Positions 5,450 to 25,665 are shown, numbered from the stretch's first letter. The stretch is DNA of 25,896 bases from an uncultured virus (IMG/VR IMGVR_UViG_2061766007_002077) (IMGVR_UViG_2061766007_002077), one strand, 5' to 3'. A program made the numbers and translations. The notes: a model not told the origin generated them from the sequence alone.

Positions 5450-5830
5450 GAGTTTGAGGAATACCTTGTTCTCCAGGACAAGTTTATTGACAAGTGTAAT
5501 ACCATTGCTTCCATCTTTGCTGAGGTAGTGGAAGATTTTATGTATGCTGACAACTGGTCTATTGAGCCTCCTTTTGAGACCTGTACTGGTTTCAGAGAGA
5601 TTGGTTATGTCTATTGTAGGGGTTGCCTTGACAGAGTTTTCCATATACCTTTCCAGTATATCTATATGACAGAAGATGAACTGAGGGATGTTGTTAAGAA
5701 CCACCCTGAACGGATTAGGGCAATGGTCCATGTTGATGAATATTGGGAGAGTTGTGAGCCCGATGACTTGAGTGATGCTGAAAGAGAGCTTGATGAGGGG
5801 TTGGCTGAATTGAAGGACATCAAGGTATGA
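5450..5830 (+). CDS. Hypothetical protein (start masked)
   Basis: Long open frame after the gap with phage-like codon usage. Confidence 0.6.
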   Translation, partial: EFEEYLVLQDKFIDKCNTIASIFAEVVEDFMYADNWSIEPPFETCTGFREIGYVYCRGCLDRVFHIPFQYIYMTEDELRDVVKNHPERIRAMVHVDEYWESCEPDDLSDAERELDEGLAELKDIKV

Positions 5831-5879: not shown

Positions 5880-5908
5880 TTGAGAATGAAGGAATTATCT
5901 GTTATATT
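5880..5908 (+). promoter_or_regulatory. Probable sigma70 promoter
   Basis: TTGAGA-N17-TATATT with TG; shares TTATCTGTTATATTATAGA with the promoter at 9356. Confidence 0.55.
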
Positions 5909-11309: not shown

Positions 11310-11486
11310 ATGGACCCTACAACAGCAATGGAAATTTATGATGCCATATTCAAGATATGGGAGATTTATTACAGAAGGGGTATAATAACCGCAGGATTCC
11401 TTGGATTCAATATCGGTGTTCTTGTCTGTATGCTATTCTCAATCAATGGTCTGCTGAGGACTAAGAAGAAAAAGGACGATAAGTAA
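11310..11486 (+). CDS. Small membrane protein
   Basis: AGGAG SD; one hydrophobic helix and a basic tail (below the ORF-track cutoff). Confidence 0.55.
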   Translation: MDPTTAMEIYDAIFKIWEIYYRRGIITAGFLGFNIGVLVCMLFSINGLLRTKKKKDDK

Positions 11487-12004
11487 ATGATTATTGATTA
11501 TAAGGTTCAGGTCAGCAATGTAAAGACTCTGATGTTCTCCAATTCCCATAAATACCTTCTTGTTGAGTCAGATAAGCATATGGGAAAGGAAGAATCCATT
11601 CTTGATGTAGTCAAGGAGATTAGGGAAATCAGCAGCTGGTCTGATAATGAGATAAAGGATGTCCTTTTAGATGTTGAGGATAACTTTGAGAAAACGGACT
11701 ACAAGCCCTTTATGGTTCTTATANNNNNNNNNNNNNNNNNNNNTATGCAATACAGCACAGAATGTCATTAAGGCATATGAGGACTATGAGAAGAATCCTG
11801 AGGAAAGCGGGTATATCGACCATTGGAACGGCCCCTCACATTATGTTAAGATGATAACAAAATATGAGAAGCCTTCATATCTTTTGGTAAGAGGGTTCAA
11901 GGGGCACCCTGAGGGAACTANNNNNNNNNNNNNNNNNNNNNNNNNNNNNNNNNNNNNNNNNNNNNNNNNNNNNNNNNNNNNNNNNNNNNNNNNNNNNNNN
12001 NNNN

Positions 12005-13468
12005 ACAGAGAACGGAGCACTCACATATAAGACCTCAGGCTCAAGAATCCTTGACTTGTTTTCAAGGGGTGGAGCATACAGGAACAGAAGTGATGAGGAT
12101 ATCATTACTCTTGTTTCAGAGGCATTTGAAGAAGACCCGCTTTATACTCTTGAGGTCCTCTTTTATTTGAGAGACATCAGGGGTGGTCAGGGTGAAAAGC
12201 GTGTATTCCGTGTGGGTATAAATGCCTTGAAGGACGCCCTTAGGACTAAGGACGGAAATCTCCACAACCTCTTTGATACAATTATTGAAATTGGCTCCTG
12301 GAAGGACATTTTTGATTACTTTGAGTTTGACGAGTGGAAGGACTATGTTGTTTCCCATGTTGAGTCATTGAATTTCTCCAAGCCTGACCTTGTGTTCAAG
12401 TATATGCCATCTGTTGGTGGTTCAAAGAACAAGCAGGCTGAGAAGTTGGCTGAGATGCTCAAGATTTCTCCTAAGGAGTATCGTAAGATGCTTACAAGGG
12501 AGAGAAAGAGACTCCAGCTTGTTGAGACCTCCATGTGTGCCAACCATTGGAATGAGGTTGATTACAATCATGTTCCTTCAAAGGCGGGCCTTCTCTACAA
12601 GAACGCATTTGCCAAGCATGATGCTGACAGATACCGCGAATTCATCACAAAGGTGAACGCAGGTGATAAGTCTGTCAAGCTTAATGCCGGAACTCTGTAT
12701 CCTTATGAGATTACAGAGAAGTACATGAATAAGTACAACTTTGAGTACTGTGGATGGGGATACTGTAACGAAGACGGTGAGCGTAAGCCTGTGGTCGATG
12801 AAGTTCTTGAAGCTTACTGGAAGTCACTTCCTGTTTATGGAGAGAGTCAGTTCAACGCTGTTGTTGTGGCTGATACGTCAGGTTCAATGTGGGGAAGACC
12901 TATGGCCGTTTCCACATCACTGGCTATCTACTTCGCTCAGCATAACACCGGTCTTTTCCATAACAAGTGGATTACCTTCTCTCACACACCTAAGTTCATT
13001 GAACTCAAGGAAGGAGAGAGCCTTGCTGACTCCATCTATACTTTCTACAAGAACTCAGAGGTAGCTGATACAAACTTGCAGGCTGTATTCGATATTATGT
13101 TGAAGGCAGCCCTGGATTACAAGTTGCCTGAGAATGAGATGCCTAAGTTGATTTACATTGTCAGTGACATGGAGTTCAACAGTGCCATTGATAACAATGG
13201 ATTCTCAGCTACCAATTATGAGGTAATCAAGGAGAAGTACGCAAGAGCAGGGTATGAAGCCCCAGCAGTAGTGTTCTGGAACGTTGATGCCAGAAATGAC
13301 CAGTCACCTGTCAGGATGAACGAGGCTGGTGTGGCTCTGATTTCAGGGTCAAGCCCTTCAACATTCAACTTGGCAATCTCCAAGGAGTGTGACCCTATGA
13401 CCTTCATGTTTAAGACCATCAGAGTCCCAAGATATGAGGAGCCTGCAAGGAGAATCCTTGGTGTCTGA
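12005..13468 (+). CDS. DUF2828-family TROVE/Ro60-like protein with C-terminal vWA domain (true start in the N gap before 12005)
   Basis: In-frame TENGA upstream of the annotated start, RDIRGGQGE, GSWKD, VPS, LYPYE; vWA MIDAS DTSGSM, DTN, SDMEF, VFWNV, SGxS. Confidence 0.88.
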   Translation, partial: TENGALTYKTSGSRILDLFSRGGAYRNRSDEDIITLVSEAFEEDPLYTLEVLFYLRDIRGGQGEKRVFRVGINALKDALRTKDGNLHNLFDTIIEIGSWKDIFDYFEFDEWKDYVVSHVESLNFSKPDLVFKYMPSVGGSKNKQAEKLAEMLKISPKEYRKMLTRERKRLQLVETSMCANHWNEVDYNHVPSKAGLLYKNAFAKHDADRYREFITKVNAGDKSVKLNAGTLYPYEITEKYMNKYNFEYCGWGYCNEDGERKPVVDEVLEAYWKSLPVYGESQFNAVVVADTSGSMWGRPMAVSTSLAIYFAQHNTGLFHNKWITFSHTPKFIELKEGESLADSIYTFYKNSEVADTNLQAVFDIMLKAALDYKLPENEMPKLIYIVSDMEFNSAIDNNGFSATNYEVIKEKYARAGYEAPAVVFWNVDARNDQSPVRMNEAGVALISGSSPSTFNLAISKECDPMTFMFKTIRVPRYEEPARRILGV

Positions 13469-14364: not shown

Positions 14365-14449
14365 TTGGTTTTCAAAAAAAGGCACTAATTAACCTATGAT
14401 TATGATGAAATTACAGGCAAGACACATTGATATGCTCAATACAAGTATA

Positions 14450-15220
14450 TTAGCCCCCAAGGGAGGGTTAATGGTTCCTGCTTGTGAAAAGGGAGGGCGG
14501 TTAAGTTGAAGGACTGAAACCCTAATACTTCCCGATACANNNNNNNNNNNNNNNNNNNNNNNNNNNNNNNNNNNNNNNNNNNNNNNNNNNNNNNNNNNNN
14601 NNNNNNNNNNNNNNNNNNNNNNNNNNNNNNNNNNNNNNNNNNNNNNNNNNNNNNNNNNNNNNNNNNNNNNNNNNNNNNNNNNNNNNNNNNNNNNNNNNNN
14701 NNNNNNNNNNNNNNNNNNNNNNNNNNNNNNNNNNNNNNNNNNNNNNNNNNNNNNNNNNNNNNNNNNNNNNNNNNNNNNNNNNNNNNNNNNNNNNNNNNNN
14801 NNNNNNNNNNNNNNNNNNNNNNNNNNNNNNNNNNNNNNNAAGTTGAAGAAAGAGATTTTTAAAGTAACTAGCGAAGGAAACAAGAGCCGAAAGGTATAAG
14901 AGAAATCTTGGCTGGCTGAGTAGGCAATGAAACTCTTGGGGNNNNNNNNNNNNNNNNNNNNNNNNNNNNNNNNNNNNNNNNNNNNNNNNNNNNNNTTAGG
15001 GTGCTCCTCTACTTGAACCTCCGAGATTAAAGAGGATGAACATGAGGAAATCAGTATCTCCCGGAGTAAGCGGATAGGGCTACTGGACTTCATGAATATG
15101 GGTTTACTTGAAAGAGTATTCTCCATAAAATCCAAGAACAGCATGATACCTATACTTGTTAAGTGGTTTCTTCTTATGGGTGTCCAAGTTGAAAGGAGTA
15201 AAGAAAAGCCACTTTTGTTA
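14450..15220 (+). ncRNA. Large structured ncRNA candidate (ROOL/GOLLD-like), partly masked
   Basis: No credible + ORF; GNRA hairpins (GCC-GAAA-GGT, TACTT-GAAA-GAGTA), long stem AAGTGGTTT..AAGCCACTT; directly upstream of the tRNA array. Boundaries uncertain. Confidence 0.55.
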
Positions 15221-16911: not shown

Positions 16912-16971
16912 TTGGATGCGATAACAGCATATAAAAATAGTGTATTAGGAAACAGACTCAGCTGCATCCAG
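16912..16971 (+). ncRNA. Small AACAGCA-motif RNA (copy 1)
   Basis: TGGATGC/GCATCCA terminal stem, AACAGCA motif, TTAGGA loop. Confidence 0.5.
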
Positions 16972-20701: not shown

Positions 20702-20919
20702 GCTGGAAATCGAGCCTCCTGAGAGGGCAACGTTAGACCATGTGACCGCCGCTTGATGCGATACCCGAAAGGGAGAGGTCTTAATCATAGGATGGCATGG
20801 GAATCNNNNNNNNNNGCTGGAAATCGAGCCTTCTGAGAGGGCAACGTTAGACCATGTGACCACCGCTTTATGCGATACCCGAAAGGGAGAGGTCTTAATC
20901 ATAGGATGGCATGGGAATC
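20702..20919 (+). repeat. Two near-identical ~104-nt copies of a structured element separated by a 10-N gap
   Basis: 20702-20805 and 20816-20919 differ at 3 positions. Confidence 0.85.
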
Positions 20920-22331: not shown

Positions 22332-22381
22332 GGGTGGTTGGGAGAGTTGGTCGAATCCACTCCCCTGCTAAGGGAGCAAAC
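22332..22381 (+). tRNA. Partial duplicate tRNA-Ser(GCT), truncated by gap
   Basis: Identical to the first 50 nt of 22478-22566. Confidence 0.5.
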
Positions 22382-22477: not shown

Positions 22478-22566
22478 GGGTGGTTGGGAGAGTTGGTCGA
22501 ATCCACTCCCCTGCTAAGGGAGCAAACTCCAAAAGGGTTTCGCTGGTTCGAATCCAGCACCACCCG
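22478..22566 (+). tRNA. tRNA-Ser(GCT)
   Basis: CTCCC-CT GCT AA-GGGAG; long variable arm; G73. Confidence 0.95.
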
Positions 22567-22825: not shown

Positions 22826-23131
22826 ATGAAGAAGGTATTTACTTTTTATGGATGGCGTTATGAGCCCGAAGATGAAGATTTGACCCTAAATTGTAATGAC
22901 AAGGTTGATATCCTTGACCTTACATCGGAATCAGCGTTGTTCAAGGTCAATGGTGAGAAGTATGAAATCAAGAGAGAGGACAGCACATTCAAGTTGTATT
23001 GGGATGATGTCTGTATAAACAAGGCCATTGCATGTAATCCCAAGCTTCCTTATTTTGATAAGGAGAAAGATGAAGATAAAGAGAGGTTTCTTGAATATAT
23101 CACCAGTATTGGTCTTATATTATATACATAA
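22826..23131 (+). CDS. Hypothetical protein
   Basis: AAGGA SD and ATG 22826 after the promoter. Confidence 0.7.
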   Translation: MKKVFTFYGWRYEPEDEDLTLNCNDKVDILDLTSESALFKVNGEKYEIKREDSTFKLYWDDVCINKAIACNPKLPYFDKEKDEDKERFLEYITSIGLILYT

Positions 23132-23298: not shown

Positions 23299-23369
23299 GG
23301 GCCGTTAGCACAACAGAAGTGCAACAGACTTTTAATCTGTGAATATAGGTGCGACTCCTATACGGCTCA
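23299..23369 (+). tRNA. tRNA-Lys(TTT)
   Basis: ACAGA-CT TTT AA-TCTGT; variant D and T loops. Confidence 0.9.
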
Positions 23370-24231: not shown

Positions 24232-24546
24232 ATGGTTATATTGACGAAAGAGAAATTTGATAAACTTGCAGAGATTGAGGGATGGACACCGGAATCTGTA
24301 GCTGAGGAAAGTAAGAACTGGATAGAAGACCCTATTTATGTTTGGGGTGGTCATGATGAAAATGTAGCTATGAATTACCTTAAACAGAAAGGATACAAGT
24401 GGCAAGGTGGTAAAGAATTGGAGAGGTTTTCTCCCGGTTGGACCTGGGGATATCCTGCAGTATTGTTCATAGAAACAGGAGGTTTCATATCATATTCTCC
24501 AGTGGAATATGGTAGTGAAACAGATGAAGAACCTTCATTTGACTGA
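24232..24546 (+). CDS. Hypothetical protein
   Basis: 104-aa ORF between tRNAs. Confidence 0.65.
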   Translation: MVILTKEKFDKLAEIEGWTPESVAEESKNWIEDPIYVWGGHDENVAMNYLKQKGYKWQGGKELERFSPGWTWGYPAVLFIETGGFISYSPVEYGSETDEEPSFD

Positions 24547-24550
24547 TAAT

Positions 24551-24623
24551 GGCTCCATCGTCTAATTGGTCAGGACGCAAGATTCTCAATCTTGAAACAG
24601 GAGTTCAAATCTCCTTGGAGCTA
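24551..24623 (+). tRNA. tRNA-Glu(CTC)
   Basis: CAAGA-TT CTC AA-TCTTG. Confidence 0.92.
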
Positions 24624-24635
24624 AAATATTTAATT

Positions 24636-24719
24636 GTCCAGGTGGTGGAACAGTAGACACGCTAGCTTGAGGTGCTAGTGACCGTAAAGGTTGTGCAAGT
24701 GCGATTCTTGTTCTGGACA
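24636..24719 (+). tRNA. tRNA-Leu(GAG)
   Basis: CTAGC-TT GAG GT-GCTAG; long variable arm. Confidence 0.9.
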
Positions 24720-24725
24720 TATCAT

Positions 24726-24799
24726 AGGATTATGGCGCAGTTGGTTAGCGTACTTGTCTGATACACAAGGGGTTCTTGGTTCAAATCCAGGTGAGCCTA
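24726..24799 (+). tRNA. tRNA with GAT anticodon (Ile by anticodon, Val-like body)
   Basis: CTTGT-CT GAT AC-ACAAG; acceptor 3' strand TGAGCCTA. Confidence 0.85.
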
Positions 24800-24814
24800 A
24801 AATGGAGAATTGAT

Positions 24815-25222
24815 ATGAATTTGCAGTACATCTATCAGAAACAGTATGAACTCAGAGACCTTATAAGAAAGTATATGTATGACCTTACCAATGCAGCACC
24901 TTCAAGGGAAAACTGGGTTCCAGGAGAGAACCTTGAAGATGAAAGTCTTTGTGTGATTGTATATACAAAGAGATACGGATTCTTGAAAAGAAAAAGATAC
25001 GAGCTTTACCTTGAGATATATGAGAACTTTGAAACTGGGTTCTACTTTGATGATGGAAAGGAACCTCCTGTGATTTCAGTCTTGAAACCCAGGGCCCTGT
25101 TTGAATATCTTGATTTGGTGAAGAACTTCTTTGTCAATGCCAAGGGGGATAGGTCTAATCTGAACTTTCCGAGGGAAACTCCTAAAGTTCCGGATTTGAG
25201 TTCTTTTGTCATAGAGAATTGA
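24815..25222 (+). CDS. Hypothetical protein
   Basis: GGAG SD, ATG 24815. Confidence 0.7.
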   Translation: MNLQYIYQKQYELRDLIRKYMYDLTNAAPSRENWVPGENLEDESLCVIVYTKRYGFLKRKRYELYLEIYENFETGFYFDDGKEPPVISVLKPRALFEYLDLVKNFFVNAKGDRSNLNFPRETPKVPDLSSFVIEN

Positions 25223-25266
25223 AGTCTATTTGCGCAAATTCCCTGAATTAGCTTATATTATATGTA

Positions 25267-25329
25267 TGGATACTAACAGCAACTTATTTAGGACTTGACT
25301 TTTAATCAAACACCCTTAAGAGTATCCAG
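25267..25329 (+). ncRNA. Small AACAGCAA-motif RNA displaying a Lys(TTT) anticodon arm (copy 2)
   Basis: TGGATACT/AGTATCCA stem, AACAGCAA, TTGA-CTTTTAA-TCAA. Confidence 0.6.
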
Positions 25330-25401
25330 TTAACTGGGTCTTNNNNNNNNNNNNNNNNNNNNNNNNNNNNNNNNNNNNNNNNNNNNNNNNNNNNNNNNNN
25401 N

Positions 25402-25433
25402 CGGTAAGATGGGTTCAACTCCCGTACCGTCTG
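25402..25433 (+). tRNA. 3' part of a tRNA (5' half and anticodon masked)
   Basis: ATGGG-TTCAACT-CCCGT T arm followed by ACCGTCT-G. Confidence 0.55.
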
Positions 25434-25665
25434 ATGATTTCCAGTAAAAGCCATGCAAGGCGACAGGCTGGAAAATGATTGGAGGGTTGCATACCTTATG
25501 AATCATAGGTGGGAAAGTGATTGTGGCACTTGGTGTACACCAAGGATGTTCCCAGCGTTCCCCATTCCNNNNNNNNNNNNNNNNNNNNNNNNNNNNNNNN
25601 NNNNNNNNNNNNNNNNNNNNNNNNNNNNNNNNNNNNNNNNNNNNNNNNNNNNNNNNNNNNNNNAT

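Follow-up and report, generated by a model that had tools for sequence, protein, structure and literature searches.

A family of small phage RNAs with an ACAGCAA bulge and tRNA-like cargo, probably Y-RNA-like partners of a divergent Ro60 homologue

On the plus strand of the window, i.e., the whole stretch of 25,896 nucleotides analysed here, positions 25267-25329 form a 63-base noncoding RNA element which is a true member of a widespread family of small phage RNAs. The family combines a 7-bp terminal stem, two bases, the heptamer ACAGCAA, which is bulged out on the 5' side, and, at the apex, a hairpin that varies and in the window mimics the anticodon stem-loop of tRNA-Lys(UUU). Probably the members of this conserved phage ncRNA family, the element included, are Y-RNA-like partners of the DUF2828/DUF7788 protein, a divergent homologue of Ro60. 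This reading is derived from two findings: the DUF2828 protein is predicted to fold like Ro60, and the window encodes one at 12005-13468. The Ro60/Y RNA machine as such is already known; new here would be its appearance in a divergent branch of the protein, with a motif of its own and with anticodon loops as cargo.

Structure of the element

The hairpin was confirmed in the sequence. Its parts succeed one another along the plus strand as TGGATACT, AACAGCAA, CTTATTTAGGAC, TTGA-CTTTTAA-TCAA, ACACCCTTAAG, and AGTATCCA-G. A first-pass annotation of this DNA had described an 8-bp terminal stem, an unpaired stretch on its 5' side, an apical hairpin with the loop of tRNA-Lys, and the lack of D and T arms; all four descriptions are correct. 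The terminal stem pairs TGGATACT (25267-25274) with AGTATCCA (25321-25328), and AACAGCAA occupies 25275-25282. In the covariance model R1, described below, the stem has 7 bp, with TGGATAC (25267-25273) opposite 25322-25328, and the pair T25274 x A25321 is an optional eighth. Identical stem ends are present in the relatives L113 and L145. The 5' strand of the stem is followed by the spacer TA and the heptamer (together 25274-25282), ACAGCAA itself being at 25276-25282 in the 5' bulge. The 3' strand, GTATCCA, and a further G together span 25322-25329 in the R1 alignment. Most members have a G after the terminal stem, and the consensus of alignment A2 ends ...GTCTTG. The element thus displays the family layout throughout: 7-bp stem, 2-base spacer, ACAGCAA on the 5' strand, and trailing G at 25329. 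ACAGCAA is presumed to be a protein-binding site. A second copy of AACAGCAA at 11321 was considered as an element and rejected; it lies within a small ORF and has no stem.

The apical hairpin TTGA-CTTTTAA-TCAA (25295-25309, plus strand) has the 7-nt anticodon loop of the phage's own tRNA-Lys(TTT) at 23299-23369; the stems of the two differ. Like the anticodon stem-loop of tRNA-Lys(UUU) it presents CUUUUAA on a short stem, yet it does so on a scaffold which is not that of a tRNA and lacks a CCA end as well as D and T arms. The absence of D and T arms is evident from the fold and from ARAGORN, which at standard settings reports no tRNA in the element; the cloverleaf of the Rfam tRNA model RF00005, with its D and T arms, is likewise not found there.

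Between the terminal stem and the apical hairpin the first reading had placed a CTTA/TAAG helix, and this is probably the wrong register. The minimum free energy fold of the window sequence does contain CTTA/TAAG together with AGG/CCT, whereas an alternative second helix, TTTAGG (25287-25292) paired with CTTAAG (25315-25320), both on the plus strand, generates the family layout. A natural variant bears on this choice. The contig from run X3 has 13 differences over 24528-25331; those within the element, taken from the 10 differences that are listed, include 25283 C>A, 25284 T>C, and 25287 T>C. In the variant the alternative register is the optimum at -11.1 kcal/mol, compared with -6.5 for the CTTA/TAAG register. 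We prefer the alternative register because the variant destroys CTTA/TAAG and strengthens 25287-25292/25315-25320. It also yields a 12-nt 5' bulge as in the relatives. Lys-type relatives fold into a terminal stem, a 12-13-nt 5' bulge starting with NN-ACAGCAA, a second helix which extends the 3' strand, a small internal loop, and finally a 4-5-bp stem with the loop CUUUUAA.

The minimum free energy of the element alone is -10.7 kcal/mol (z -2.34), and 5 of 200 shuffled sequences were equally stable. By itself this fold is modest and would not exclude chance. Chance is excluded because of the comparison with the family in other phages (R1, E 3e-10).

The RNA family and its linkage to DUF2828/DUF7788 genes

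Direct searches returned no relatives. This holds for blastn of 24776-25343 against GenBank phages, for the upstream 148-aa ORF in the phage collection (tblastn), IMG/VR, and the JGI metagenomes, for an exact 25-mer of the element and for the window's DUF2828 protein as a single query in IMG/VR, and for the element pattern in the JGI metagenomes. At E up to 10 the element had no match in Rfam, nor was it matched in a scan of the whole window at E up to 1; the Y RNA and YrlA models (RF00019, RF02553) did not match it, and Rfam 15 contains no family for ACAGCAA RNAs. The openly accessible literature that was searched holds no description of ACAGCAA/DUF2828 RNAs.

The relatives came to light with a gapped pattern (ACAGCA, Lys hairpin, and GTATCC) which matched two IMG/VR contigs. 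Both carry two tandem elements behind a tRNA array and on the tRNA strand, ending about 20 nt ahead of a DUF2828/DUF7788 gene; its product is 32% identical to the window ORF 12056-13468 (E 2e-87). Terminal stems and ACAGCAA are kept in the related contigs and the apical loop is altered. Another pattern, GTTCGCTGACAGCAA, was found in 94 IMG/VR stretches. Judged by context, the matches listed looked like chance 15-mers, save for those from about 8 related contigs, and 69 of the stretches were reused as unrelated control loci.

The linkage was quantified in a set of viral loci (811,034 nt) around the best 80 of 498 DUF2828 relatives, which had been collected with a three-protein alignment. Within these best 80 of 498, ACAGCAA occurs 389 times on the strand of the gene vs. 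42 times on the opposite strand. About half of the gene-strand motifs (194 of 389) fall into three 250-nt bins, i.e., 750 nt, adjoining the gene match on its upstream side, with a flat distribution on the opposite strand; at least one ACAGCAA is located no more than 700 nt upstream of the gene in 71 of the 80 loci. When gene-strand motifs are inspected for an enclosing 7-bp stem which starts 0-3 nt before the motif, 193 of the 389 have one. For control heptamers the corresponding numbers are 5/58, 9/90, 6/58, and 5/69 (8-10%). We regard 193/389 as the unbiased figure for the stem because the rows of alignment A2 were selected for a complementary stem. In A2, ACAGCAA is invariant, though the motif was the selection key, and all seven terminal-stem pairs change on both sides in rows which were picked for complementarity; the 99.5% pairing is partly by construction, as rows were selected for motif and stem. 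The A2 stems include G-U pairs in 10 cells.

The covariance model R1 was built from 59 non-redundant short elements of other phages, the window being excluded, with the terminal stem as its only structure. In the window it matches 25266-25329 over its full length (model positions 1-62) with 49.3 bits and E 3.1e-10; the next-best match in the window reaches 13.7 bits. At E <= 0.01, R1 produces 192 matches in 74 of the 80 loci (best 80 of 498), all 192 on the strand of the gene, a count to be read with the provision that the 80 loci supplied the elements for R1, so that neither is independent of the other, and that many loci stem from few metagenomes. The 69 unrelated viral loci (about 195 kb) gave a single match. 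This match (L068:2248-2360, minus strand, 28.3 bits) lies in a 120-kb viral contig and may be a real member.

Cultured phages, none of which was used in building R1, extend the picture. Matches with E <= 0.01 are present in seven of nine sampled, every one on the strand of the gene. Salmonella phage Felix O1 (FO1a) has three such matches just downstream of gp42, where three to four elements are located in total; Listeria phage P100 has two upstream of gp165; Mycobacterium phage Samty (cluster L) two downstream of gp54; Staphylococcus phage BE22 three directly downstream of the gene; Campylobacter phage F357 two and Enterococcus phage VRE9_4 one, directly upstream of it; and Bacillus phage PJN02 four upstream. 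No match was obtained within 3 kb of the gene in Vibrio phage nt-1 and within 4 kb in Aeromonas phage phiAS5. Because cultured phages carry the elements, an artefact of one metagenome is ruled out. No R1 match at E up to 1 was obtained at the loci of Bxz1 and CcrColossus, whose Ro60 is of the TROVE type; therefore, the type of RNA follows the type of protein. An association with DUF2828, which had been put forward for testing, is consequently established as a strand-specific link in 74 of the 80 viral loci (best 80 of 498) and in seven of nine cultured phages. The companion proposal, an RNA whose AACAGCA stem is a protein-binding site, is strongly supported by the comparative evidence, with the binding as such presumed.

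In the window the DUF2828 gene is on the same strand and the element is 11.8 kb downstream of it; the usual distance is below 1 kb. Part of the sequence immediately ahead of the gene is masked. In L113 and L145, whose proteins are 43-44% identical to that of the window, elements of the form TGGATAC..ACAGCAA..GTATCCAG are scattered in tRNA arrays, and in L145, the closest by protein identity, they are 1-4 kb from the gene inside the array.

A possible second, diverged copy in the window is at 16912-16971 (plus strand) between tRNA-Leu(taa) and tRNA-Met, with the sequence TTGGATGC-GAT-AACAGCAT...GCATCCAG. It is the source of the 13.7-bit R1 score (E 0.3) and folds weakly (z -0.95). Its ends are TGGATGC/GCATCCA, as in L113:390-443, and its motif is ACAGCAT behind a 3-nt spacer.

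Other RNA genes were observed at the loci studied. L001 has two full-length tRNA-like genes of 116-126 nt (L001:2306-2431 and L001:2987-3102, minus strand) which are matched by the Rfam tRNA model, and the same genes are found in L002, L024, L030, L058, and L079. Between D arm and T arm they carry an insert composed of the hairpin GCGAAC-YGAYAA-GTTCGC, the stem of which covaries between contigs, followed by TG-ACAGCAA. They look like tRNAs with the same ACAGCAA handle. In BE22 a 29-codon CDS annotated as a hypothetical protein (BE22_0031, L181:5513-5602) overlies an R1 match at 5525-5588 (48.7 bits) and is probably an RNA gene misannotated as a CDS. In P100 a sub-threshold match to ROOL RNA (L178:1366-1917; 86 bits vs. 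a gathering score of 99.1; E 4.9e-16) lies among tRNAs, with the DUF2828 gene following about 1 kb downstream.

The Ro60-like protein and known Ro60 systems

The DUF2828/DUF7788 gene of the window is at 12005-13468 on the plus strand. Its frame is open from 12005, and the 5' end enters the masked stretch 11921-12004. The protein matches Pfam DUF7788 (E 6.9e-41) and DUF2828 (E 7.3e-29) as well as phrog_850, annotated as 'RNA-binding protein' (E 2.9e-111). Pfam TROVE did not match it at E up to 0.01. In the PDB, sequence searches showed no DUF2828-Ro60 link up to E 0.01, and raising the limit to E 10 brought up nothing relevant. The connection emerged from a predicted structure. An AlphaFold model of the relative from L113 (43% identical; alignment of 40 sequences) has a mean pLDDT of 88.8 and a pTM of 0.86. 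When it was compared with the PDB by Foldseek, the top 11 matches were Ro60 structures, their sources being Deinococcus, Xenopus, human, and Thermus phage phiLo; each alignment spanned the full length, with E-values of 2e-7 to 3e-4 and TM-scores of 0.38-0.56, and isolated vWA domains followed in the list. The predicted model thus gives the DUF2828 protein a Ro60-like fold, and the link between DUF2828 and Ro60 is one of fold, not of sequence. We presume this protein to be the partner of the element. In the GenBank phage collection about 700 records of the DUF2828 branch, those of Felix O1 and P100 included, are annotated only as 'RNA-binding protein' or 'Ro-like'.

Ro60 grips a motif on the 5' strand beside the terminal stem of a Y RNA, the remainder of which serves as a tether for further proteins, PNPase among them (PMC4201824, PMC12135203). 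The closest parallel is Thermus phage phiLo with Yrl1 and Yrl2. Its Ro60 needs the CGAA motif of Yrl2, and its Yrl RNAs, located upstream of the Ro60 gene, have a 5'-3' stem around a large bulge with CGAA (PMC12135203). Common to phiLo and the phages described here are a ring protein encoded by the phage, with a Ro60 fold that for DUF2828 is a predicted one, small RNAs adjacent to its gene, and an RNA stem which flanks a large bulge with a short conserved motif (PMC12135203). The differences are that phiLo has a TROVE-type Ro60 and CGAA, whereas here the protein is DUF2828/DUF7788 and the motif ACAGCAA, and that binding of the motif was demonstrated for phiLo (PMC12135203), while for the ACAGCAA RNAs we infer it by analogy.

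Similar parallels exist to YrlA and YrlB with Rsr: proximity to and the same strand as a Ro60-type gene, a motif on the 5' strand by the terminal stem (PMC4201824; RF02553), modular RNAs with a tRNA-like domain, and several RNAs per locus (PMC4201824). YrlA has the motif GNCGAAN0-1G together with a T arm and a D arm (PMC4201824); the window element has neither arm and an anticodon stem-loop instead. Neither the bacterial motif GNCGAAN0-1G nor the vertebrate GGUCCGA, in the form given there (PMC4201824), occurs in the element; no CGAA is present in 25267-25329, and the bulge is AACAGCAA. The phage list in Table S2 of Chen et al. 2014 comprises Bacillus G, CcrColossus, and cluster C1 mycobacteriophages, and Bxz1 and CcrColossus are entered with YrlA RNAs (PMC4201824). 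That list is of the TROVE type, and none of the seven element-bearing cultured phages appears in it (PMC4201824).

On the side of the protein, gp130 of Bas63, a Felix O1-like coliphage, is structurally Ro60-like, is encoded directly upstream of tRNA genes, and counters the Ppl defence, and the PhageMaP authors guessed that some of the nearby 'tRNA genes' may be Y RNAs (PMC11482910). The fold result for the L113 model agrees with this Ro60-like call (PMC11482910). That Bas63 gp130 is a DUF2828 protein is our assumption; the likeness consists in a Ro60-like protein beside tRNA genes (PMC11482910). No RNA is identified in the Bas63 work (PMC11482910), whereas candidate RNAs are defined here, among them those downstream of gp42 in Felix O1.

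Cargo, transcription and function

The apical part of the family varies in a particular manner. The loop CTTTTAA is present in 16 of 128 unique short elements and is also the commonest 7-nt hairpin loop. In 13 Lys-type elements, the window included, both sides change in four of the five hairpin pairs, and the paired cells amount to 90.8%; these rows were chosen by loop and not by stem. RNAalifold predicted only the terminal stem for these 13 elements; for this reason the Lys hairpin was tested as a named structure. A hairpin of at least 4 bp with a YU-NNN-RN loop is found in 62 of 167 unique elements, compared with 11 +/- 2.9 (maximum 19) for shuffled interiors. Among the triplets of these 62 hairpins TTT leads with 12, followed by CGA (11) and CAA (5), which are T-loop readings, and then by GTT, TGT, GAT, and others; GGTTC[GA]A occurs in 24 of the 167 elements. 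Long forms of about 110 nt carry, behind ACAGCAA, a T arm, a closed hairpin, and a D arm in YrlA order, as in Mycobacterium phage Samty (L180:4566-4674), L145:4240-4360, and L161:2871-2981. The Samty long form has a sub-threshold YrlA match (37.9 bits vs. a gathering score of 69). The family is therefore composed of one constant handle and exchangeable tRNA-like parts.

tRNA-Lys(UUU) is the target of PrrC, and its anticodon stem-loop is a substrate of the anticodon nucleases PrrC and RloC. This background invites an explanation without DUF2828, namely a free-standing anticodon decoy which soaks up or misleads a tRNA-Lys(UUU) nuclease of the PrrC, RloC, or PARIS type. Agreement of the loop with that of the phage's own tRNA-Lys, recurrence of the Lys-type hairpin on a covarying stem, and the prevalence of TTT among the cargo triplets all speak in its favor. 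Yet a decoy leaves ACAGCAA, the terminal stem, and the linkage to DUF2828 unexplained, and most members carry other cargo. Close relatives alter the loop: CTTTTAA is replaced by CTTGAAA in L024 and L058 and CTGATAA by CTGTTAA, and in one contig the hairpin is replaced outright; L030 has no hairpin. The expectation that homologs keep the anticodon loop thus holds for a subset (16 of 128; 13 with covarying stems) and fails for close relatives which swap it and for the many members with other cargo. In view of these loop swaps and other cargoes a decoy cannot be the defining function of the family, and we consider this explanation improbable.

Transcription of the element is suggested by its sequence surroundings. 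It is part of a long tRNA array with 22 ARAGORN calls and further T arms beside masked bases. The window, which derives from an uncultured phage, has a G+C content of 40% and is masked in many places. The promoter proposed upstream, TTGCGC-N17/18-TATATT (25230-25259, plus strand), would start transcription at about 25266-25268, i.e., at the first base of the element. It is weak: the -10 part recurs elsewhere, yet TTGCGC agrees with the consensus at three of six positions and a consensus scan gave no call. Ahead of tRNA-Arg, at 23115, the -10 block TTATATTATAT has an exact repeat; copies with one mismatch stand at 5902 and 9378, each before an ORF and behind a good -35 box (TTGACA/TTGAGA). In the form TTATATTATA(G/T) the promoter-like block recurs on the plus strand at 5902, 9378, 23115, and 25253; the copies at 5902 and 9378 are 17 nt behind TTGAGA/TTGACA and have an upstream ATTATCTG in common. 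The recurrent block is likely a phage promoter family. Downstream, GGGTTCAACTCCC (25403-25434, plus strand), in register with the T arms of other tRNAs, represents the T arm and the acceptor 3' strand of a tRNA that comes next in the array, the 5' part of which is masked (25343-25401); the element lies about 15-30 nt before this masked tRNA, and the two are probably co-transcribed. Many family members sit 2-4 nt behind a tRNA and are therefore probably cut from tRNA precursors. The window sequence is present in animal-gut and bovine-gut metagenome runs, and contigs from four runs were aligned to it. From RNA-library run X20 a single contig of 151 nt was obtained, which covers 25102-25218 and is outside the element; as regards expression this result is neutral.

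Such neighborhoods could also be read as those of an element for processing or stability of tRNA precursors, a leader hairpin for host RNases with ACAGCAA as the signal and no DUF2828 partnership. The many members 2-4 nt behind or just before a tRNA, and the position of the window copy between a promoter-like site and a masked tRNA, would suit it. Against it, tandem members in P100, BE22, and L001 directly flank the DUF2828 gene with no tRNA between, the elements track the gene rather than tRNA arrays (the tRNA-bearing TROVE locus of CcrColossus has none), and the long forms show the YrlA layout. We hold a processing element to be highly improbable.

The array itself shows several irregularities. 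The X3 contig, otherwise 98% alike, is missing 24251-24527; these 277 bases are most of a small ORF (24232-24546) between two tRNAs, a case of presence/absence variation. The 5' half of tRNA-Ser(gct) is present as an exact 50-nt duplicate (22332-22381, 22478-22527), 146 nt upstream of the tRNA-Ser(gct) gene, and a 104-nt tandem repeat of 97% identity is at 20702-20805 and 20816-20919; both repeats adjoin masked bases. Ahead of the first tRNA about 850 nt (14365-15220, partly masked) are devoid of an ORF on the plus strand and contain a 251-aa ORF on the minus strand which has no Pfam or PHROG match. A larger RNA might be encoded in this region.

A decayed or armless tRNA-Lys gene, be it a pseudogene or a minimal decoding tRNA, would account for a seven-pair stem beginning with GG, a perfect Lys anticodon loop, and the position within a tRNA array. 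With the threshold lowered to 80%, the mitochondrial mode of ARAGORN does draw a Lys(ttt) cloverleaf, accompanied by two overlapping spurious calls; at standard or mitochondrial settings ARAGORN makes no call, and an armless mitochondrial-type tRNA was rejected on this ground. The Rfam tRNA matches are at 20-21 other sites, not at the element. A pseudogene would lose the perfect stem and ACAGCAA, both of which are kept across phages of three bacterial phyla, and the cargo often is no anticodon hairpin at all. We therefore give this origin hardly any credence. Equally far-fetched is a chance hairpin or a DNA-level site (a recombination site or terminator-like inverted repeat): the fold is modest and inverted repeats of 8 bp are no rarity in 26 kb, but the R1 match was obtained with a model built without the window, the strand bias is 192 of 192, the 10 G-U cells in the A2 stems would be mismatches on the other strand, and no T-run follows the stem.

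We return to the Y-RNA-like partner of the DUF2828/DUF7788 protein. The RNA would originate in the tRNA array, where a weak promoter of its own would drive it or a tRNA precursor would include it. It would fold into a rod with a 7-bp terminal stem, a 5' bulge starting with NN-ACAGCAA, a second helix, and the tRNA-Lys(UUU) anticodon mimic at the apex. By analogy with Ro60 and Y RNAs, the stem and the ACAGCAA bulge may serve as the handle gripped by the ring-shaped protein, and the apical hairpin as exchangeable cargo which might bring a tRNA-recognizing host factor to the protein or block this factor. The Lys anticodon hairpin may be the bait for a factor which recognizes tRNA-Lys, an anticodon nuclease being one candidate.

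The element would be the first known RNA partner candidate for the DUF2828 branch, and it is testable as a defined module of terminal stem plus ACAGCAA; a working covariance model and a catalogue of tRNA-like cargoes are supplied with it. It makes concrete the guess in PMC11482910 that Y RNAs exist among the tRNA genes beside Bas63 gp130. It may also explain some of the small ORFs annotated over such elements, e.g., BE22_0031, and 'orphan' tRNA mimics in phages can be re-examined for a DUF2828 partner. Tentatively, and with the odds in our judgment clearly against it, one may go further and view DUF2828 and the ACAGCAA RNAs as a programmable display platform, in which one protein handle and a cassette-like set of RNAs present different tRNA fragments and so capture, inhibit, or redirect host enzymes which read or attack certain tRNAs. 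If this is true, the fragments on display would include T arms and anticodon loops of the Lys, Asn, Ile, Thr, Cys, or Ser type, the RNA of the window would be a tRNA-Lys(UUU) bait against anticodon nucleases, and the rapid swapping of cargo between close relatives would record an arms race with host defences.
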